In this document: positions 2 through 59,196 of the stretch, piece after piece
How the letters are laid out: the number at the start of each line of letters is the position of its first letter
Position numbering within the stretch: position 1 is the stretch's first letter
Assembly (NCBI RefSeq): GCF_050920415.1
Contig: NZ_CP169309.1
Reading direction: 5' to 3' (one strand)
DNA length: 64,000 nt
From: Escherichia coli
GTDB lineage: Bacteria; Pseudomonadota; Gammaproteobacteria; Enterobacterales; Enterobacteriaceae
The notes under the pieces: generated by a model
What the model saw: the letters and a program-made list of their open reading frames with translations, nothing else
The model's database searches: none
Told to the model about the DNA's origin: nothing
Translations under genes and position numbers: made by a program

Positions 2-1339
2 GGGGCACTGAAAGCCGCAGGTGGACTGTGGTTTGGCTGGAGTGGCGAAACAGGAAATGAGGATCAGCCACTAAAAAAGGTGAAAAAGGGTAACATTACG
101 TGGGCCTCTTTTAACCTCAGCGAACAGGATCTTGACGAATACTACAACCAATTCTCCAATGCCGTTCTCTGGCCTGCTTTTCATTATCGGCTCGATCTGG
201 TGCAATTTCAGCGTCCTGCCTGGGATGGCTACCTACGCGTAAATGCAATGCTGGCAGATAAATTATTGCCGCTCCTGCAAGACGATGACATTATCTGGAT
301 CCACGATTATCACCTGTTGCCCTTTGCGCATGAATTACGCAAAAGAGGGGTGAATAATCGCATTGGTTTCTTTTTGCATATTCCATTCCCGACGCCGGAA
401 ATCTTCAACGCGCTGCCGACATATGACACCTTGCTTGAACAGCTTTGTGATTATGATTTGCTGGGTTTCCAGACAGAAAACGATCGTCTGGCGTTCCTGG
501 ATTGCCTTTCTAACCTGACCCGTGTCACGACGCGTAGCGCAAAAAGCCATACGGCCTGCGGCAAAGCGTTTCGAACAGAAGTTTACCCGATCGGCATTGA
601 ACCGAAAGAAATAGCGAAACAGGCTGCCGGACCACTGCCGCCAAAACTGGCGCAACTCAAAGCGGAACTGAAAAACGTACAGAACATCTTTTCTGTTGAA
701 CGACTGGATTATTCCAAAGGTCTGCCGGAGCGTTTTCTCGCCTATGAAGCGTTACTGGAAAAATATCCGCAACATCACGGTAAAATTCGTTATACCCAGA
801 TCGCGCCAACGTCGCGTGGTGATGTGCAAGCCTATCAGGATATTCGTCATCAGCTCGAAAATGAAGCCGGACGAATTAATGGTAAATATGGGCAATTAGG
901 CTGGACGCCGCTTTATTATTTGAATCAGCATTTTGACCGTAAATTACTGATGAAAATATTCCGCTACTCTGACGTGGGCTTAGTGACGCCACTGCGTGAC
1001 GGGATGAACCTGGTGGCAAAAGAGTATGTTGCCGCTCAGGATCCGGCCAACCCGGGCGTACTTGTTCTTTCGCAATTTGCGGGAGCGGCAAACGAGTTAA
1101 CGTCGGCGTTAATTGTTAATCCCTACGATCGTGACGAAGTTGCAGCTGCGCTGGATCGTGCATTGACTATGTCGCTGGCGGAACGTATTTCCCGTCATGC
1201 AGAAATGCTGGACGTTATCGTGAAAAACGATATTAACCACTGGCAGGAGTGCTTCATTAGCGACCTAAAGCAGATAGTTCCGCGAAGCGCGGAAAGCCAG
1301 CAGCGCGATAAAGTTGCTACCTTTCCTAAGCTTGCGTAA
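2..1339 (+). CDS. otsA: Trehalose-6-phosphate synthase OtsA, 5' end lies outside the window
   Basis: Open frame from window start; translation matches the E. coli OtsA C-terminal ~445 aa (GGLWFGWSGETGNEDQPLKKVKKGNITWASFNL...); stop at 1337-1339. Confidence 0.93.
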   Translation, partial: GALKAAGGLWFGWSGETGNEDQPLKKVKKGNITWASFNLSEQDLDEYYNQFSNAVLWPAFHYRLDLVQFQRPAWDGYLRVNAMLADKLLPLLQDDDIIWIHDYHLLPFAHELRKRGVNNRIGFFLHIPFPTPEIFNALPTYDTLLEQLCDYDLLGFQTENDRLAFLDCLSNLTRVTTRSAKSHTACGKAFRTEVYPIGIEPKEIAKQAAGPLPPKLAQLKAELKNVQNIFSVERLDYSKGLPERFLAYEALLEKYPQHHGKIRYTQIAPTSRGDVQAYQDIRHQLENEAGRINGKYGQLGWTPLYYLNQHFDRKLLMKIFRYSDVGLVTPLRDGMNLVAKEYVAAQDPANPGVLVLSQFAGAANELTSALIVNPYDRDEVAAALDRALTMSLAERISRHAEMLDVIVKNDINHWQECFISDLKQIVPRSAESQQRDKVATFPKLA

Positions 1340-1345
1340 GTGCGG

Positions 1346-1774
1346 TTAATCTCCCGTAAGTGGAACTAACAGCACATCGACCTCACTTGAGGCAATCACT
1401 CTTTTCGCCGAGCAGGATGCTCGCGAAAAGAAACTGTGATTGTGATTACCGCAAATCACCAAATCGAAATGATGTTTGCGACAAACCTCCAGAATATGTT
1501 CGCTTAACTCACCGTAGGCAATAAACGTCTCGTCAACGGGATACCCCGCATCCTGAATTAACTTATCAAGAAAGCTTTGCGTTTCTTCCTGCATCACGCT
1601 GCGTAAATCTTCAAGCATCGGCGCGGCTAATTGATTGTACATTTCCGGGTCGGAAGCGAGAGTAATTAAACTGATGTGTCCCTTTACTGGCCTGGTGATA
1701 GATACCGCTTTTGCTAGCAGTTGCTGACTTTCCGGTGTAACCGCAACGGCGACAAGAATATTGCTATAGCTCAT
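1346..1774 (-). CDS. uspC: Universal stress protein C
   Basis: 142-aa ORF, MSYSNILVAVAVTPESQQLLAKAV..., Usp fold; position between otsA and flhDC as in E. coli. Confidence 0.9.
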   Translation of the reverse strand: MSYSNILVAVAVTPESQQLLAKAVSITRPVKGHISLITLASDPEMYNQLAAPMLEDLRSVMQEETQSFLDKLIQDAGYPVDETFIAYGELSEHILEVCRKHHFDLVICGNHNHSFFSRASCSAKRVIASSEVDVLLVPLTGD

Positions 1775-2555
1775 AACCTGTTCCTTATTCTGTGAACTTC
1801 AGGTGACATTAAAGCTTTACTCCTAATGGAGAATCGACGCAATCCCAACTCAGTCAAACAGGTAAATATTAGTGTGATTATTAGTAAATACAATTAATCA
1901 ATGACGCCCAGCAATCATATAATTTCAATTGTTATTATAAGGAAAAAATGTACTAATTCCCCTTATTAAACAAATGGGTAATATATATAAAACATTTTGT
2001 TAACATTAAGTGGGTTGTTGCCTGTCTTTGCCTTAAATCAGTTTATTGTGTTGTAAGTGCCTGTTTGTAAATAGATTAACTGATTTTGCATTTGACCAAT
2101 TATTTATAGCAGATGATTATTTACGGTGAGTTATTTTAACTGTGCGAAACATCTCATTTCGATTATTACGGTTTCACTTTTGCTTACCATCGGTGTGAAA
2201 AACTTTTTAACAGATTGAAATACACCCAAAACAAAAGTATGACTTATACATTTATGTTAAGTAATTGAGTATTTTATGTGATCTGCATCACACATTATTG
2301 AAAATCGCAGTACCCCTCCGTTGTATGTGCGTGTAGTGACGAGTACAGTTGCGTCGATTTAGGAAAAATCTTAGATAAGTGTAAAGTACCCCCTCTATTT
2401 GTAAGGACCTATTAAACCCAATAAGGTGGGGCTGTTTTATTGCAGCTTATCGCAACTATTCTAATGCTAATTACTTTTTACCGGGGCTTCCCGGCGACAT
2501 CACGGGGTGCGGTGATACCGCATAAAAATAAAGTTGGTTATTCTGGGTGGGAATA
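1775..2555. promoter_or_regulatory. Long AT-rich flhDC class I promoter / leader region
   Basis: About 780 bp non-coding AT-rich sequence directly upstream of flhD; known heavily regulated region in E. coli; no IS-like ORF present. Confidence 0.7.
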
Positions 2556-2906
2556 ATGCATACCTCCGAGTTGCTGAAACACATTTATGACATCAACTTG
2601 TCATATTTACTACTTGCACAGCGTCTGATTGTTCAGGACAAAGCGTCCGCAATGTTTCGTCTCGGCATAAATGAAGAAATGGCGACAACGTTAGCGGCAC
2701 TGACTCTTCCGCAAATGGTTAAGCTGGCAGAAACCAATCAACTGGTTTGTCACTTTCGTTTTGACAGCCACCAGACGATTACTCAGTTGACGCAAGATTC
2801 CCGCGTTGACGATCTCCAGCAAATTCATACCGGCATCATGCTCTCAACACGCTTGCTGAATGATGTTAATCAGCCTGAAGAAGCGCTGCGCAAGAAAAGG
2901 GCGTGA
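2556..2906 (+). CDS. flhD: Flagellar master regulator FlhD
   Basis: Translation [24 protein letters not shown]... (116 aa from this ATG); the ORF track start at 2547 is 3 codons upstream. Confidence 0.93.
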
Positions 2907-2908
2907 TC

Positions 2909-3487
2909 ATGAGTGAAAAAAGCATTGTTCAGGAAGCGCGGGATATTCAGCTGGCAATGGAATTGATCACACTGGGCGCTCGTTTGCAGATGCTGGAAAG
3001 CGAAACACAGTTAAGTCGCGGACGCCTGATAAAACTCTATAAAGAACTGCGCGGAAGCCCACCGCCGAAAGGCATGCTGCCATTCTCAACCGACTGGTTT
3101 ATGACCTGGGAACAAAACGTTCATGCTTCGATGTTCTGTAACGCATGGCAGTTTTTACTGAAAACCGGCTTGTGTAATGGCGTCGATGCGGTAATCAAAG
3201 CCTACCGTTTATACCTTGAACAGTGCCCGCAAGCAGAAGAAGGACCGCTACTGGCATTAACCCGTGCCTGGACATTGGTACGGTTTGTTGAAAGTGGATT
3301 ACTGCAACTTTCCAGCTGCAACTGCTGCAGCGGCAATTTTATTACCCACGCTCACCAGCCTGTTGGCAGCTTTGCCTGCAGCTTATGTCAGCCGCCATCC
3401 CGGGCAGTAAAAAGACGTAAACTTTCCCAGAATCCTGCCGATATTATCCCACAACTGCTGGATGAACAGAGAGTACAGGCTGTTTAA
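2909..3487 (+). CDS. flhC: Flagellar master regulator FlhC
   Basis: [27 protein letters not shown]..., 192 aa, Cys-rich zinc site; overlaps flhD stop. Confidence 0.93.
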
Positions 3488-3512
3488 CTGATACGGTGTG
3501 GCGAAACATTCC

Positions 3513-3550
3513 AGCAGCGGTAACGACGTACCGCTGCTTTTTTTGCCTCA
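3513..3550 (+). terminator. Rho-independent terminator after flhC
   Basis: Inverted repeat AGCAGCGGTA...TACCGCTGCT followed by a T7 run. Confidence 0.6.
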
Positions 3551-3612
3551 ATCGCGCGTTAACGTCTGACGACTGAACATCCTGTCATGGTCAACAGTGG
3601 AAGGATGATGTC

Positions 3613-4496
3613 GTGCTTATCTTATTAGGTTACCTGGTTGTTCTCGGTACAGTTTTCGGCGGTTATCTGATGACCGGTGGAAGCCTTGGAGCACTCTATC
3701 AACCCGCTGAACTGGTGATTATTGCCGGTGCAGGGATTGGGTCGTTTATCGTCGGCAATAATGGCAAAGCGATTAAAGGCACGCTGAAGGCGCTGCCGTT
3801 ACTATTTCGTCGCTCCAAATATACCAAAGCAATGTATATGGATCTGCTGGCTCTGCTTTATCGGTTGATGGCGAAATCGCGGCAGATGGGGATGTTTTCG
3901 CTGGAACGCGATATTGAAAATCCCCGTGAGAGCGAGATCTTCGCCAGCTACCCACGCATCCTTGCGGATAGCGTCATGCTTGATTTTATCGTCGATTATC
4001 TGCGCCTGATTATCAGCGGTCACATGAATACCTTCGAAATTGAAGCCCTGATGGATGAAGAGATTGAGACGCACGAAAGCGAAGCAGAAGTCCCGGCGAA
4101 CAGTCTGGCATTGGTCGGGGACTCACTTCCGGCGTTTGGTATTGTCGCGGCTGTGATGGGGGTCGTTCACGCGTTAGGTTCAGCCGATCGTCCTGCCGCC
4201 GAGCTGGGGGCGCTTATCGCACATGCGATGGTGGGGACTTTCCTCGGTATTTTATTGGCTTACGGATTTATTTCCCCATTAGCGAGTGTTTTACGTCAGA
4301 AAAGCGCCGAAACCAGCAAAATGATGCAATGCGTCAAAGTCACACTGCTTTCTAATCTGAACGGTTACGCACCGCCTATCGCCGTTGAGTTTGGTCGCAA
4401 AACGCTCTATTCCAGCGAACGTCCGTCGTTTATTGAACTGGAAGAGCATGTGCGTGCGGTGAAAAATCCGCAACAACAGACGACAACCGAGGAAGC

Positions 4497-4500
<4 letters not shown>
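3613..4500 (+). CDS. motA: Flagellar motor stator protein MotA
   Basis: 295 aa, four TM segments, [20 protein letters not shown]... Confidence 0.95.
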
Positions 4501-7392
<2,892 letters not shown>

Positions 7393-29275: not shown

Positions 29276-30589
29276 CTAACTTACTGATTTTAATAGGCCT
29301 CTTGTGTCACTTTGGTGACTATGGGACATCATTGGGACATAATCTGCCAGCTTCTGATTCAGCATGGCGATCTGTTCTGCATTGCTGTCAGTCATCCATG
29401 CTCCGTATACATTGAACACCATCTGGGCACTTGCATGGCCCATCTGGCTGGCAATGAAGCTTGGATTTGCTCCGGCAGATAATGACCAGCACGCATAAGT
29501 GTGTCGTGACTGGTATGCCTTTCGATGCCTGATGCCTGCATGCTTAATGGCTGTTTCCCATGAGTCGCCAATGGAATCTACTTTGTAGATAAAACCTACC
29601 TGTTTGCTTTTTCTAACCACCTGGGGGTTAAATACGAAAGTACATTCATGATTCACTGAACGTCCATATTCACGTAGTTGAACCTTGATGTGGTGCTGCT
29701 TACCCAGTCTTGTCATTTCAGCCTGATTTTTCAGGACACTGATAGCGGGCTGGATAAGATGCACAACCCTGTTTGTACTTGCCTCAGTTTTAGGTAGAGT
29801 GAACTCGCCGAGTTTCGTATAATTACGCCTGATAGTAATTGTTCCTGCTTTCAGATCGATATCTTCCCATGCCAGGGAGACCAGTTCACCGTGACGCATT
29901 CCTGTGTACACAGCCAATGACCACAGGTTTTTCGTCTGCTGATGTCGGCAGGCATCTATCAGGCGAATAAATTCGTCACGAGTTAGCGGATCTGGTTCTG
30001 CCCTGGCTCTTTTAAGAGGCTTAATTCCCTCGAAGGGATTTGCTTCTAAGTAACCGTGATCTGCAGCAAACTGAAACATTCCAGCGATTGTCGTCATGTA
30101 ATAATTTACAGTAACGACGCTCCGTCCTTTTAGTGCTGCTTTGTTTTTCGTTGAATTCTGATACCCGGTCAGCAAATCTTTCCTGATATACAGCAATTCC
30201 TCTTTGGTTACCGATGACACCAGTCTGCTGCCTCCAATTTTCGGAACCATCGTTCTTGCAACGGATTCATAGCGATTGAATGCATTTGCAGAGATTTCCA
30301 TTCGTTTCAGATCCAGCCACTTTTCTTCAAGTTCTTTCACCGTAATTTCTTTTTTACTTACCCCAAAAGCCTGAAGGTTAGGGGAGTCAGGGAACTGTGC
30401 AGCATAATCAAAGCTTCCTGTGCGGATGGCAAAACATACCGATGTCCGCAGTTCCCCGGCGATCTTCCTGTTCTTGGCAGTGTCAGGGACACCAAGATTT
30501 TCCCTGACACGTTTACCTTTAAAATTAAACCAGATGCGTAATGTGCCGCCGTGGTTTTCGACGCCTGTTGGATATTTGACTTTATCCAT
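29276..30589 (-). CDS. int: Phage integrase (tyrosine recombinase)
   Basis: 437 aa; arm-binding N-terminus (GTLRIWFNFKGKRVRE) and C-terminal catalytic region; GGAGG RBS 6 nt upstream. Confidence 0.9.
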   Translation of the reverse strand: MDKVKYPTGVENHGGTLRIWFNFKGKRVRENLGVPDTAKNRKIAGELRTSVCFAIRTGSFDYAAQFPDSPNLQAFGVSKKEITVKELEEKWLDLKRMEISANAFNRYESVARTMVPKIGGSRLVSSVTKEELLYIRKDLLTGYQNSTKNKAALKGRSVVTVNYYMTTIAGMFQFAADHGYLEANPFEGIKPLKRARAEPDPLTRDEFIRLIDACRHQQTKNLWSLAVYTGMRHGELVSLAWEDIDLKAGTITIRRNYTKLGEFTLPKTEASTNRVVHLIQPAISVLKNQAEMTRLGKQHHIKVQLREYGRSVNHECTFVFNPQVVRKSKQVGFIYKVDSIGDSWETAIKHAGIRHRKAYQSRHTYACWSLSAGANPSFIASQMGHASAQMVFNVYGAWMTDSNAEQIAMLNQKLADYVPMMSHSHQSDTRGLLKSVS

Positions 30590-47056: not shown

Positions 47057-47539
47057 ATGTCAGGACCTCCGAAAACCCCGCCACGCCTGCATTTGATACG
47101 AGGCAACCCCTCAAAGCGTCCCGTTAAAGACCACAAAAAAACCGCTAAAAAGGATGAAAAAGGTCTTCCTAAAATTCCGCAGCATTTAGGGGCTCAGGGG
47201 AAGTACTGGTTCAGGCGAATGGCGGAAGAGCTGAATGCGGAAGGGATCATTTCTCAGCTTGATGCACGTGCGCTCGAGTTGCTGGTGGAAGCCTACACCG
47301 AATATCGGCATCACTGCGAAACACTCGATGTTGAGGGGTATACTTACCGCACGGAAACGCAGAGCGGTGATGTACTGATTAAGGCGCACCCCGCGGCGGC
47401 AATGAAAGCGGATGCCTGGAAGCGGATCCGGGCAATGCTTGCAGAGTTTGGTATGTCACCGGCAAGCCGGGCTAAAGTAAATATCGCCGGACCGGATGAT
47501 GTTGATCCGCTGGCGGAGCTTTTAAAAGCGAGAGACTGA
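47057..47539 (+). CDS. Terminase small subunit
   Basis: 160 aa, directly upstream of and overlapping the large terminase; basic N-terminus. Confidence 0.75.
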   Translation: MSGPPKTPPRLHLIRGNPSKRPVKDHKKTAKKDEKGLPKIPQHLGAQGKYWFRRMAEELNAEGIISQLDARALELLVEAYTEYRHHCETLDVEGYTYRTETQSGDVLIKAHPAAAMKADAWKRIRAMLAEFGMSPASRAKVNIAGPDDVDPLAELLKARD

Positions 47540-49296
47540 TGGCAAAAGTGGCTGACGGGATCCGCTACGCCGAACGTGTTGTTGCAGGAGAAATTGTTGC
47601 TGGCGAATTTGTCCGCCTGGCCTGCCAGCGTTTTCTTGATGATCTGAAGTACGGCGAAGAGCGGGGGATTTATTTCAGTGAACCCCGTGCGCAGCACATC
47701 CTGAATTTCTACAAATTTGTGCCTCATGTAAAAGGGGCGCTGGCAGGCCAGCCCATTGAGTTGATGGACTGGCATGTATTTATCCTCATTAATATTTTTG
47801 GTTTTGTCATTCCGCTGGTCAATGAAGAGACCGGGGAAGTTGTCATGCGCAGCGATGGCAGCGGACGTCCGGTGATGGTGCGCCGGTTCCGGACGGCGTA
47901 CAACGAAGTCGCCCGTAAAAACGCAAAATCAACTCTGTCATCGGGTATCGGCCTGTATATGACGGGGGCAGATGGTGAAGGCGGAGCTGAGGTGTATTCA
48001 GCCGCAACCACGCGTGACCAGGCCAGAATCGTGTTTGAAGACGCCAAAAATATGGTCAGAAAAGCCCGGTCGACACTCGGGCGGTTGTTTGATTTCAACA
48101 AGCTGGCGATTTACCAGGAGCAGAGCGCATCAAAATTTGAACCGCTTTCTTCGGATGCAAACAACCTGGATGGTCTGAACATTCACTGCGCCATTATTGA
48201 TGAGCTGCATGCACATAAAACCCGTGACGTGTGGGACGTTCTGGAAACGGCAACCGGTGCTCGTCTGCAGTCCCTTTTATTTGGTATCACCACGGCAGGG
48301 TTTAACAAGGAAGGGATTTGTTACGAGCAGCGTGATTACGCCATCAAGGTATTGCGTGGCTATAACAGCGACGTGGAGGGCGCGGTAAAAGACGACTCCT
48401 ACTTTGCGATTATTTACACCCTCGATGAGGGAGATGATCCGTTTGATGAAACGGTCTGGCAGAAAGCGAATCCCGGCCTGGGCATCTGTAAACGCTGGGA
48501 TGATCTGCGTCGCTTGGCGAAAAAAGCGAAAGAACAGGTCTCTGCTCGGGTGAATTTTTTTACCAAACACATGAATGTGTGGGTAACAGCAGAGTCTGCC
48601 TGGATGGACATGATTAAGTGGGAGAAGTGCGAATACATTGCCCCACGACATGAGCTGAAAACGTATCCCATGTGGGTCGGCGTTGACCTTGCTCATAAGA
48701 TTGATATCTGTGCGGCGGCAAAACTCTGGCGAACGGATAACGGGCATGTTCATGCCGATTTTAAATTCTGGCTTCCGGAAGGACGGCTGGAACGATGCTC
48801 GCGGCAGCAGGCAGAACTTTACCGGAAGTGGGCGGAGATGGATAAGCTGATTCTGACGGATGGTGATGTTATCGATCATGCTCAGATAAAAAGTGACTTA
48901 CTGGAATGGATTGGTGGTGAAAACCTCAGGGAACTGGGATTTGACCCGTGGAGCGCGATGCAGTTCAGCCTGGCACTGGCTGAAGAAGGGATACCGCTGG
49001 TGGAGGTTCCGCAGACGGTTCGCAATCTGTCAGAGGCCATGAAGGAAACGGAATCACTGGTCTATGCCGGGCGTTTCCATCACAGCAATCATCCGGTCAT
49101 GAACTGGATGATGTCTAACGTTACGGTAAAACCGGACAAAAACGACAATATCTTCCCGAATAAATCCACGCTGGAAGCCAAAATCGACGGTCCTGTTGCG
49201 ATGTTTACAGCAATGAGCCGGATGCTGGTCAATGGCGGTGAACCGGAGCCGGATCTGTCTGAGCATCTGGTCAGCGTTGGTATCCGCTCGCTTTAA
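47539..49296 (+). CDS. Terminase large subunit
   Basis: 585 aa; ATPase N-terminus and nuclease C-terminus arrangement. Confidence 0.85.
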
Positions 49297-55995: not shown

Positions 55996-58900
55996 ATGGC
56001 GACATTACGTGAGCTGATTATTAAAATCTCGGCAAATTCCCGGTCATTCCAGTCAGAGATCTCCCGGGCTTCGCGTATGGGGCAGGATTACTACCGTACC
56101 ATGCAGAACGGAGGCCGGCAGTCCGCTGCTGCATCCCGTGAAATGCGGCGTGCACTGGCAGAAGTGACGGATCAGATAAATACAGCTAAATCTTCGGCAC
56201 TGAATATGGCGGGGGCATTTGCCGGGGCTTTTGCTACCGGTCATCTTATTTCTCTCGCCGATGAGTGGAATTCAGTAAATGCCCGTCTGAAGCAGGCCTC
56301 ACAGTCCACTGATGATTTTCAGGTATCACAACGTGAATTAATGGCAATCAGCCAGAGAACGGGAACGGCGTTTTCTGATAACGCCAGCCTTTTTGCCCGC
56401 TCTGCAGCTTCCATGCGGGAGTATGGCTACAGTTCTGAGGAGGTACTGAAAGTCACCGAGGCTATCTCCACGGGCCTGAAATTATCCGGTGCCAGTGCAG
56501 CAGAAGCCAGTTCGGTGATCACGCAGTTCAGTCAGGCACTGGCGCAGGGAGTGCTGCGCGGTGAAGAATTTAACTCTGTGAATGAGAACGGCGATCGTGT
56601 TATTCGTGCGCTGGCTGCGGGAATGGGTGTTGCCCGTAAGGATCTGAAGGCCATGGCGGATAACGGAAAGTTGACCGCCGATAAGGTTGTTCCTGCACTG
56701 ATTAGTCAGCTTGGGGCGTTGCGTGATGAATATGCAGCAATGCCTGATACGGTTTCATCCTCTGCAACCAAAGTTGAAAACGCCTTTATGGCCTGGGTTG
56801 GTGGTGCGAACGAAGCAAGCGGAGTGACGAAGACGCTCTCCGGTGTGCTGAATGGTATTGCAGGCAATATTGACACTGTGGCAACCGCTGCCGGTGCTCT
56901 GGTTGCCGTCGGGGTAGCCCGATATTTTGGCAATATGGCATCTTCTGCTGGATCTGCAACTGCCGGATTAATTACTGCAGCCAGAAACGAAGTAGCTCTT
57001 GCGGAAGCGCAGCTCCGGGGGACGCAGATAGCAACCGCCAGGGCGCGTGCGGCGGTTTATCGTGCGCAACAGGCGGTCGCGGCTACCCGTGGTACTGAAA
57101 GACAGGCAGCCGCAGAAGCGAAACTGGCTGCTGCCCAGGCATCACTTACCCGTAATATTGCGGCCAGAACAGCAGCACAGACAACGCTGAATACTGTCAC
57201 GTCAGTGGGGAGTCGTTTATTAAGTGGTGCGCTGGGGCTGGTTGGTGGTGTGCCGGGACTCGTCATGCTGGGGGCGACGGCCTGGTACACGATGTATCAG
57301 AATCAGGAGCAGGCCAGAGAATCTGCACGCCAGTATGCCGCAACAATCGACGAAATTCGCCAGAAAACGTCGGCAATGTCGCTTCCTGAAGCGTCAGATA
57401 ATGAGGAAAAGACGCGGCAGGCACTGGAGGAACAAAATCGCCTGATTAACGAACAGGAAGGAAAAATTCGCGGACTGAAAAATCAAATTGCTGATTATCA
57501 ACGTTGGCTTGATGAAAGTTCGCAGAGTGGTTCTGGTGCTGAAATCATCCTTAAAGGGCTTGCAGAAGCAACAAATCAACTGGCAGTTGAACAGTCCCGT
57601 CTCACACAAATGCAGGGCAAAGCGCAATCCATTCAGGATGTGCTTGCCGGGCTGGAGGAGCGACGAGTGGCGTTGATCCGTCAACAGGCAGCGGAACAAA
57701 ACAAAGCGTATCAGTCCCTGTTGATCATGAATGGGAAGCATACCGAGTTTAATCGCCTTCTCGGGCTTGGTAATGAATTACTTCAGCAGCGACAGGGGCT
57801 GGTGAATGTACCGTTACGGCTACCACAGGCAACTCTGGATGATAAACAGCAGACCGCACTGAATAACAGCAAGCGCGAACTGGCTCTGTCCCGCCTTAAG
57901 GGGGAAGCGCGTGAGCGTGCCCGACTGGGCTATGCTGCGGATGATCTCGGCTTTGTGGGAGAGGCGTATCGGACAGCCAGACAGAATTATATCAATAACT
58001 CACTGGATGCCTGGCGAAATAACCAGGCAAATAAACCCAAAGCGCATAAAAAGACCGAAGCGGAAAAAACAGAAGATATTTATAAACGGCTGATTAAACA
58101 GCAAAAAGAACAGATAGCACTGGCAGGGCAGAATACTGAACTGGCTAAGATGAAATATCAGGTCAGTCAGGGCGAATTATCAACCCTGTCAGAAGCGCAG
58201 AAAAAAACGCTTTTGCAGAATGCAGCACTCATCGACCAGAAAAAGATTCGTGAGCAGCTTGCCGCGTATGAAAGCAGTCTGGCGGACAGTAATGCCAGTG
58301 CCCGGGCATCTGACGACGCGCAGTTGCTGGGATATGGTGAAGGCTCACGGATGCGTGAACGACTCCAGGAAATGTGGAGTATCCGGCATGAGTTTGAGCA
58401 GAAAAATAACGAGCTGCTGAGACAGTATCAGGCCGGAGAAATTGAAGAAGCCCTGTGGAAACAGGAGAAAGAACTGAATAAAAAATATCTGGAAGAGCGT
58501 CTCAGCGATCAGCAGGATTATTATGCAAAGGCCGATGCTTTACGTAATAACTGGAATGCCGGACTCCAGGAGGGACTGACCAACTGGGCAGACAGTGCCA
58601 CCGATTATGCTTCACAGGCGGCAGATGCTGTTGTTTCCACGATGGACGGGCTGGTATCAAATATTTCCGATGCACTGGCCGGGAATGTTGTGGAGTGGAG
58701 GAACTGGGGGAGTTCAGTTCTCCGGGAAGTTTCAAAAATTCTGATGAATGCGGCCATTGTTAACGGACTGAAGTCACTCTCCGGTGCCGGAGGGTGGCTT
58801 GGTACGGTCGGCGGATGGATTTCGGGGGCGGTGGCAAACGCAAAAGGTGGTGTTTACACATCGGCAAATCTGAGTGCTTACAGTAACACTATTGTGGATA

Positions 58901-59196
58901 CACCGACGTATTTTGCTTTTGCGAAAGGTGCCGGGCTGATGGGCGAGGCCGGGCCTGAAGCTATCATGCCACTGACACGGGCAGCGGACGGCTCTCTTGG
59001 GGTCAGGGCCATTGGCAATGTGAATGGTGGCGGTGGATTTGTTTATTCTCCCGTGTATCACATTAGCATTCAGAATCAAGGGAGCAATGGCGAGATAGAT
59101 ACGCGCTCAGCCAGGGGACTGGTGGATCTGATCGACAGCAGGGTTGTGTCAATTATGCAGTCATCGCGTCGGGATGGAGGATTATACAGTGCCTGA
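55996..59196 (+). CDS. Tail tape measure protein
   Basis: 1066 aa, alpha-helical, Ala/Gln-rich repeats; conserved position. Confidence 0.9.
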   Translation: MATLRELIIKISANSRSFQSEISRASRMGQDYYRTMQNGGRQSAAASREMRRALAEVTDQINTAKSSALNMAGAFAGAFATGHLISLADEWNSVNARLKQASQSTDDFQVSQRELMAISQRTGTAFSDNASLFARSAASMREYGYSSEEVLKVTEAISTGLKLSGASAAEASSVITQFSQALAQGVLRGEEFNSVNENGDRVIRALAAGMGVARKDLKAMADNGKLTADKVVPALISQLGALRDEYAAMPDTVSSSATKVENAFMAWVGGANEASGVTKTLSGVLNGIAGNIDTVATAAGALVAVGVARYFGNMASSAGSATAGLITAARNEVALAEAQLRGTQIATARARAAVYRAQQAVAATRGTERQAAAEAKLAAAQASLTRNIAARTAAQTTLNTVTSVGSRLLSGALGLVGGVPGLVMLGATAWYTMYQNQEQARESARQYAATIDEIRQKTSAMSLPEASDNEEKTRQALEEQNRLINEQEGKIRGLKNQIADYQRWLDESSQSGSGAEIILKGLAEATNQLAVEQSRLTQMQGKAQSIQDVLAGLEERRVALIRQQAAEQNKAYQSLLIMNGKHTEFNRLLGLGNELLQQRQGLVNVPLRLPQATLDDKQQTALNNSKRELALSRLKGEARERARLGYAADDLGFVGEAYRTARQNYINNSLDAWRNNQANKPKAHKKTEAEKTEDIYKRLIKQQKEQIALAGQNTELAKMKYQVSQGELSTLSEAQKKTLLQNAALIDQKKIREQLAAYESSLADSNASARASDDAQLLGYGEGSRMRERLQEMWSIRHEFEQKNNELLRQYQAGEIEEALWKQEKELNKKYLEERLSDQQDYYAKADALRNNWNAGLQEGLTNWADSATDYASQAADAVVSTMDGLVSNISDALAGNVVEWRNWGSSVLREVSKILMNAAIVNGLKSLSGAGGWLGTVGGWISGAVANAKGGVYTSANLSAYSNTIVDTPTYFAFAKGAGLMGEAGPEAIMPLTRAADGSLGVRAIGNVNGGGGFVYSPVYHISIQNQGSNGEIDTRSARGLVDLIDSRVVSIMQSSRRDGGLYSA

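Follow-up and report, generated by a model that had tools for sequence, protein, structure and literature searches.

Introduction

Insertion sequences (IS) that land upstream of flhDC, the operon encoding the flagellar master regulator, are a well-described route to higher motility in Escherichia coli K-12, with activating insertions reported at -96/-99, -166, -303, -315, and as far as -476 from the transcription start (PMC5100188) and an IS5 copy reported 516 bp upstream of the start codon (PMC11237407). The latter study also found lower motility but better survival of acid shock in IS-free strains. K-12 likewise becomes fully motile when a thyA cassette occupies the IS positions (PMC4183435), and because such a neutral cassette has this effect, the upstream DNA itself is repressive in cis. 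Two further bodies of work bear on this region. Conserved genes may flank intergenic alleles that have been exchanged wholesale, a process termed intergenic region switching or horizontal regulatory transfer (Oren et al. 2014, as summarized in the Piggy paper, PMC5890482), and single-nucleotide polymorphisms (SNPs) and an IS30 insertion between uspC and flhDC have been used as markers for host and source tracking (PMC5007776, PMC11267920).

Here we describe the same locus in a 64-kb stretch of E. coli DNA (contig NZ_CP169309.1; hereafter, the window). It carries an intact, IS-free uspC/flhDC control region, about 600 bp of which is a rare allele that was very likely imported by recombination from an Escherichia lineage outside the sampled E. 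coli.

Organization of the uspC-flhD locus

The uspC start codon, on the complementary strand, ends at position 1774 and the flhD ATG begins at 2556, so that the intergenic gap spans exactly 1775-2555. The genes motA, motB, and cheA come after flhC, and this order is that of the RefSeq annotation of the near-identical strain N96. The features of the locus are as follows; positions relative to transcription refer to the flhD start placed below.

ends at 1339, + strand: otsA, 5'-truncated, the first gene of the window
1346-1774, - strand: uspC, 142 aa, transcribed away from flhD (open reading frame [ORF] and N96 RefSeq annotation)
1775-2555: uspC-flhD intergenic region, 781 bp, AT-rich and IS-free (ORFs and alignment to IS-less K-12)
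1775-1902: conserved uspC-proximal part, presumed to hold the uspC promoter and leader (promoter placement inferred)
1903-2516: divergent tract, very likely replaced by recombination (minimum bounds; the maximum is 1697-2756)
1903-2196: dense core of the divergent tract, at about -453 to -160 relative to the start of flhD transcription
2249-2260: empty IS hotspot, comprising 2249-2256 and 2257-2260
2257-2260: TTAA target of IS5, -99 to -96 (positions from PMC5100188)
2277-2292: CRP-type palindrome TGTGATCTGCATCACA, centered at -71.5 as computed from the K-12 annotation
2320-2386, + strand: flhDC core promoter, start site, and the leader's first 30 nt; identical to K-12 over 67 nt
2356-2555, + strand: 5' untranslated leader of flhDC, some 200 nt long (8 Escherichia leaders aligned and folded to a consensus)
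2356-2577, - strand: position homologous to the K-12 antisense RNA AsflhD (b4839; K-12 1978176-1978395 mapped by alignment)
2360-2375: RcsAB-box-like sequence TTAGGAAAAATCTTAG, within the 67-nt block
2556-2906, + strand: flhD, flagellar master regulator gene (ORF and N96 RefSeq annotation)
2909-3487, + strand: flhC, flagellar master regulator gene (ORF and N96 RefSeq annotation)
29276-30589: prophage integrase
47539-49296: prophage large terminase
55996-59196: prophage tape measure

The wider neighborhood is itself variable. Upstream, otsA (80-1339) is patchy relative to K-12, with blocks of 93-94% identity beside blocks of 100% and a dS of 0.18, and because other strains are patchy in otsA too, the otsA-flhDC neighborhood looks recombination rich. 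Downstream, colinearity with K-12 stops inside yecE (K-12 1951480), and positions 29258-64000 of the window are a lambdoid prophage integrated there. At the yecE site, the sister strains N96 and MFDS1022581 carry other prophages, which are mosaic; both include IS66, that of N96 an IS21-like element as well, and the window has neither.

The intergenic region contains no IS or IS remnant

The initial annotation described the gap as continuous, AT-rich, noncoding DNA devoid of a transposase ORF or terminal inverted repeats, and each part of that description holds for the 781 bp. GC content is 29-34% over 1801-2400, compared with 45-55% in the flanking genes, and the longest ORFs touching the region amount to 30-40 aa. 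Only two inverted-repeat pairs with 12-nt arms occur in 1300-3000. The arms of one lie 605 nt apart, and the other, the sole short-range pair, is an 11-of-12 match between AAATCAGTTTAT (2035-2046) and ATTAACTGATTT (2075-2086) that was created by five window-specific substitutions and is missing from the mainstream alleles. We considered the latter as a binding site or as the end of a miniature transposable element (MITE) and dismissed it as a chance occurrence, because 17% of dinucleotide-preserving shuffles contain such a repeat.

Alignment to reference flhDC upstream sequences, the check that the initial annotation had proposed, uncovered no IS-derived sequence anywhere in 1775-2555. In K-12 MG1655 the gap contains IS1H (NC_000913.3 1978503-1979270, insA5/insB5), in agreement with the earlier statement that laboratory K-12 carries an IS here. 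Removing IS1H and one copy of its target duplication gives an IS-less K-12 comparison sequence of 779 bp, with which the window gap is colinear from end to end, the sole indels being two single bases that both lie in the 5' untranslated region. The intergenic length in other genomes is 777-782 bp. The IS1H insertion point of K-12 corresponds to 2249-2256 of the window, where the sequence CATTTATG is present once; in K-12 it stands on both sides of IS1H, and the window thus shows no target-site duplication. BLAST searches with IS1H, IS66, IS21-like, and IS5-family elements (the IS66 and IS21-like queries taken from the sister-strain prophages and the IS5-family query from the E. fergusonii locus described below) returned no match anywhere in the 64-kb window, and an Rfam scan of 1300-3700 at E values of up to 1 returned no match either.

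The distribution of the region also differs from that of mobile DNA. It is single copy in E. coli genomes, with a median of 1 place per genome and a maximum of 2, and it matched 13 of 72,556 plasmid records. Among the 10 plasmid matches listed, seven are E. coli records, 393 kb to 4.9 Mb in size and filed as plasmids, that contain the full-length colinear locus, two are weak Salmonella matches to the promoter-proximal part, and none shows an IS-type pattern. Because IS-derived DNA would be multicopy and would match very many plasmids, we conclude that the region is not IS derived. One plasmid record, that of Bacillus thuringiensis CT-43 (HM037272.1; match H133), is 87.8% identical to the region over 490 bp (1-490), most likely because the record is contaminated or chimerically assembled.

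Such DNA could nonetheless hide a remnant of an IS, the scar of an excision, or a MITE, and the inverted repeat at 2035-2046/2075-2086, being peculiar to the window-type allele, is the one feature that speaks for this. A repeat of equal quality is, however, common among shuffled sequences, the region is colinear base for base with IS-less alleles and contains no added DNA, it is single copy with no wide plasmid spread, and neither the four IS elements nor Rfam yielded a match. We therefore regard a hidden remnant as extremely improbable.

The IS-free state is the usual one in E. coli

A single place covering at least 80% of the region was found in 5,271 of the 5,421 matching complete genomes. 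Places exceed records by 118, consistent with about 118 genomes in which the region is split in two; the search merged IS1-sized insertions into one place (for example, match H56), so that these numbers do not give an exact IS-bearing fraction. IS-bearing genomes are nevertheless a small minority, with K-12 stocks among them, and an IS-free flhDC control region is the usual wild state. The observation that the window lacks an IS is thus correct but ordinary, and already known.

That the flhDC upstream region is a hotspot at which IS insertions raise motility, a further claim of the initial annotation, is well supported, in that the published insertion sites map onto the window gap. The IS5 site of PMC11237407 falls at about 2038-2040 of the window, and we take it to be the same as the -315/-318 site. 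The hotspot is also used in nature, as indicated by E. fergusonii CP057210.1 (L056), in which an IS5-family transposase (326 aa, DDE_Tnp_1 and DUF772 domains) lies between uspC and flhD and only the promoter-proximal part of the region is retained. The window differs from this locus in lacking any such element.

The core promoter and leader are conserved

We placed the flhD transcription start at about 2356, that is, 198 nt upstream of the ATG, by taking the end of asflhD in the K-12 annotation as the flhD start. The mapping is confirmed by the TTAA at 2257-2260, which sits exactly at the published -99 to -96 target of IS5. Around the start, 2337-2374 is invariant across the aligned Escherichia alleles save for one base in ST2747. 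The palindrome TGTGATCTGCATCACA upstream of the core promoter we take, as established knowledge, to be the CRP site (Soutourina et al. 1999). Its last position, 2292, is G in K-12 alone and A in the window and every other aligned Escherichia allele, so that the right half-site reads TCACG in K-12 and has the consensus TCACA in the window.

Within the leader, the middle (2387-2437) is variable. The 3' half holds the ribosome-binding site and two GC hairpins (2481-2494 and 2509-2521), and hardly any of its positions vary, even when E. marmotae and E. albertii are included. The window-private changes in the leader fall in an unconserved spacer and in a hairpin loop (2516), and the comparison of 8 Escherichia leaders brought out no convincing compensatory changes between the window and mainstream leaders. 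AsflhD and MotR are placed here by homology with the K-12 annotation only, because Rfam gave no match. A scan for consensus promoters returned 2 sites, compared with 4.0 expected, and thus carries no information on promoter placement. Outside Escherichia (Citrobacter, Salmonella, and others), the region can be aligned only from about 2215 onward.

The window and K-12 (MG1655 with IS1H, and IS-less stocks such as J53) therefore share the locus and its gene order, a transcription start located 198-200 nt before flhD, a CRP palindrome centered at -71.5, the 67-nt core, the conserved 3' part of the leader, and the TTAA target of IS5 at -99. They differ in that the window has no IS1, that its leader is longer by two bases, and that the distal segment is strongly diverged, as detailed below. 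Judged by sequence and position, the class 1 promoter features of the K-12 type (the start and the CRP site at -71.5) are conserved in the window.

The initial annotation had gone on to state that the native regulatory architecture appears intact, and this calls for qualification. The core promoter, the CRP site, and the leader hairpins are kept in sequence, but about 600 bp of the region is a rare divergent allele rather than the usual E. coli sequence, and the IS5 targets CTAG at -169 and TTAG at -318 are gone. Intactness is accordingly read from the conservation of the proximal elements.

A sharply bounded divergent tract upstream of the promoter

The divergence of the window allele is confined to a small part of the locus. 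The uspC gene is 97.4-98.4% identical to its counterparts in K-12, B2, and ST2747, and flhDC is 98.4-98.9% identical; the FlhD protein of the window is identical to the commonest E. coli FlhD. The first part of the gap, 1775-1884, shows 0-3 differences between the window and the mainstream alleles. In 1885-2200, identity to K-12, B2, and ST2747 drops to 81-85%. Of all 300-bp stretches in the 29 kb colinear with K-12, this one diverges by far the most, with 82% identity to K-12; the next lowest has 90.7% and the median is 97%. Relative to 14 mainstream sequences, the window has 97 private sites in 5,170 bp, of which 44 fall in the 294 bp of 1903-2196 (15% of positions, against a background of 0.9%; binomial P = 7e-29) and 12 fall in 2271-2516. 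The dense core at 1903-2196 belongs to the distal zone in which flhDC of K-12 is activated by IS insertions.

Two of the genomes used for comparison have features of their own. RMDEC465 (L091, NZ_CM177019.1) is a near-isogenic natural comparator over positions 1-29000 of the window that carries a mainstream intergenic allele; an integrase lies beside its yecE, and its annotation lists flhE, which contains an internal stop, as a pseudogene. L017 (NZ_JAATUR010000018.1, "E. coli SCPM-O-B-8794") is a GTDB species representative labeled E. coli, but its otsA, flhDC, and motAB are only about 92% identical to those of E. coli (dS 0.2-0.5), and it probably belongs to a cryptic Escherichia clade. The UspC and FlhD variants of L017 are found in 21-25 public contigs, all labeled E. 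coli.

RMDEC465 and the window differ at 74 of the 614 positions of 1903-2516 (12%), compared with 2 differences in 1046-1902 and 12 in 2517-5338 (0.4%; 14 in about 3.7 kb). These differences imply an exchanged tract of between 614 bp and about 1.06 kb that is essentially intergenic DNA. The carriers of related alleles show breakpoints of their own: 2013C-4282 and WL297 are mosaic, being mainstream-like in 1903-1987 and window-like from 1999, and 2017-02-2CC has an L017-like patch at 1832-1877.

Distances and trees agree with this picture. Jukes-Cantor (JC) distances between the window and the mainstream alleles in 1885-2200 are 0.17-0.22, whereas flanking dS is 0.01-0.09 in uspC, flhD, flhC, and motA and higher in motB (up to 0.13) and otsA (up to 0.18; otsA itself is mosaic). 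Among themselves, the mainstream alleles differ by 0.03-0.08 in the distal segment, about equal to their flanking dS, and for this reason the segment does not appear to be intrinsically fast evolving. Neighbor-joining bootstrap support for E. coli monophyly is 100% for flhDC and 85% for uspC but 0-3% for the distal segment, and in the proximal part of the tract the window groups with L017 at 88% bootstrap support. For L017, the distal-segment distance is 0.21 to the window and 0.14-0.17 to K-12. Within the tract, the window allele therefore branches outside mainstream E. coli, about as deeply as a separate Escherichia species.

The window allele is rare and its carriers are not clonal with the window

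Five of 5,426 complete E. coli genomes match the full-length 781-bp region at 97% identity or more:

N96: 100% identity
MFDS1022581: 99.9% identity
2017-02-2CC: 98.1% identity
2013C-4282: 97.3% identity
WL297: 97.2% identity

Every other full-length match has at most 91.3% identity, and 5,414 genomes fall between 80 and 95%; by comparison, 4,652 genomes match the K-12 allele at 95% identity or more. The mainstream allele is the one present in all 10 of 10 contigs that encode the same FlhD and in 25 of 25 metagenome contigs recovered with a degenerate pattern matching all alleles, and a metagenome scan with a window-specific 21-mer gave 0 matches. The exact UspC of the window is indexed in 177 assembly-collection blocks, as opposed to 104,560 for its FlhD, and the identical divergent region was present at 3 of the 3 exact-UspC places shown, which stand for 24 contigs. 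The five carriers are nonclonal with the window, with patchy identity of 98.5-98.7% over 29 kb; the assembly GCA_000190955.1 also counts among the carriers. A description of the window-type uspC-flhD allele was not found in the literature searched.

Origin of the divergent tract

None of the candidate donors that we compared is closer to the window than to K-12, and this holds for E. marmotae, E. albertii, E. fergusonii, and the L017 species as well as for three contigs with UspC variants (L058, L059, and L061). In the distal segment, E. marmotae and E. albertii reach 66-69% identity with the window allele and with the K-12 allele alike, and L017 reaches 81% with the window and 84% with K-12. 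The donor was not found among the Escherichia species reached via UspC homologues, GTDB representatives, and metagenomes, a sample that excludes E. ruysiae, E. whittamii, and other clades. The scan of GTDB species representatives, made with a degenerate pattern at the flhD start, returned 30 loci, including one near-coli Escherichia (L017), and missed most Escherichia species, among them E. coli itself, E. albertii, and E. fergusonii. Under import, the donor would belong to a lineage outside the sample that is about as deep as the split between E. coli and L017. We infer the direction of the exchange solely from the rarity of the allele in E. coli.

Import has to be weighed against two other histories. 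The tract may be an old polymorphism retained within E. coli, by deep coalescence or by balancing selection on motility regulation, in keeping with the facts that the flanking genes of all carriers found are those of E. coli and that no donor species was found; the host-associated SNP patterns reported for the uspC-flhDC region (PMC5007776, PMC11267920) would also fit selection. Yet an allele frequency of about 0.1-0.2% is unlike what balancing selection usually maintains, the divergence equals or exceeds that of a different Escherichia species at this locus, and the breakpoints against RMDEC465 are sharp. We judge this history to be unlikely, and because either one needs recombination to produce the mosaic, it differs from import mainly in where the allele was kept.

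Divergence in place, through raised mutation, relaxed constraint in AT-rich noncoding DNA, or a burst of positive selection, would suit a segment that is noncoding, has a GC content of 29%, and has no homologue detected outside Escherichia, and a three-point estimate with L017 as the outgroup makes the window branch about twice as long as the K-12 branch. The local rate is not raised among the mainstream alleles, however, where distal divergence about equals flanking dS, and the step from 0.4% in the flanks to 12% in the tract between the window and RMDEC465, the sharp edges, and the second breakpoint in 2013C-4282 all speak against this reading. The substitutions themselves, with transitions and transversions numbering 30 and 26, are an even mix over 300 bp and show no motif clustering. 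Divergence in place is accordingly very improbable, and recombinational import from outside the sampled E. coli is the reading that we adopt in what follows.

Potential consequences for flhDC regulation

By homology with K-12, a sigma-70 promoter would start transcription at about 2356 with activation from the CRP site at -71.5, and the leader of about 200 nt would carry the known posttranscriptional control. The AT-rich DNA farther upstream would hold the operon at weak expression. The class 1 promoter as defined in K-12 also comprises distal upstream sites for repressors (H-NS, LrhA, OmpR, QseB, and others). In K-12, an IS or any other cassette placed between the upstream DNA and the promoter raises flhDC expression and motility. 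From the absence of an insertion in the gap, we predict that the strain is wild and tightly regulated in motility.

At 18% divergence, the distal DNA has a GC content of 29.4% in the window and 30.4% in K-12 and the numbers of A/T tracts are similar, suggesting that the generic AT-rich, nucleoid-protein-binding character is probably kept, and nothing in the allele suggests a loss of function. The supply of IS5-type YTAR targets is also similar in the window and K-12 (11 versus 12). Two of the four mapped K-12 IS5 targets are lost, CTAG at -169 having become CCAT and TTAG at -318 having become TCAG, and those at -99 and -475 are kept in the window allele. It is conceivable, though doubtful, that replacement of the distal silencer alters the repression of flhDC (and perhaps of uspC) and, via the two lost IS5 targets, the IS-capture switch to hypermotility. 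If so, recombination would tune not only the level of a phenotype but also its evolvability.

The lack of an IS is useful mainly for sanity-checking the annotation and for predicting that the strain does not belong to the hypermotile variants of the laboratory type. The window lineage and RMDEC465 form a natural pair that differs almost only in about 600 bp upstream of flhDC, and this pair could show what share the distal DNA has in flhDC repression and in IS capture. The tract is one more clear case of recombination replacing regulatory DNA between conserved genes. Its overall importance is low and would rise modestly only if the allele changes motility regulation or IS capture.

Comparison with intergenic marker regions and switched intergenic regions

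The studies that use uspC-flhDC intergenic variants as host- and source-tracking markers recognize this region as one that varies between natural isolates and can serve as a guide to lineage or niche. Those markers are SNP combinations within mainstream alleles and, in wastewater strains, IS30; the window lacks IS30, and its allele falls well beyond the range of mainstream variation.

A further parallel is with switched intergenic regions as presented in the Piggy paper (PMC5890482). As in that class, conserved genes flank a highly divergent intergenic allele, with 97.4-98.9% identity in the flanks of the window versus 81-85% in 1885-2200, the tree of the allele conflicts with those of the genes, and the exchange has sharp breakpoints. 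Against the 90% cutoff given there, the whole region stands just above the line for most genomes and just below it for 1,292. The window departs from switched regions in that its replacement is homologous to and colinear with the usual allele rather than an unrelated sequence, and in that no donor was identified among the lineages compared. On the evidence of sequence, the window allele fits a switched intergenic region arising by horizontal regulatory transfer, in a homologous and colinear form that leaves the core promoter and leader of flhDC in place.
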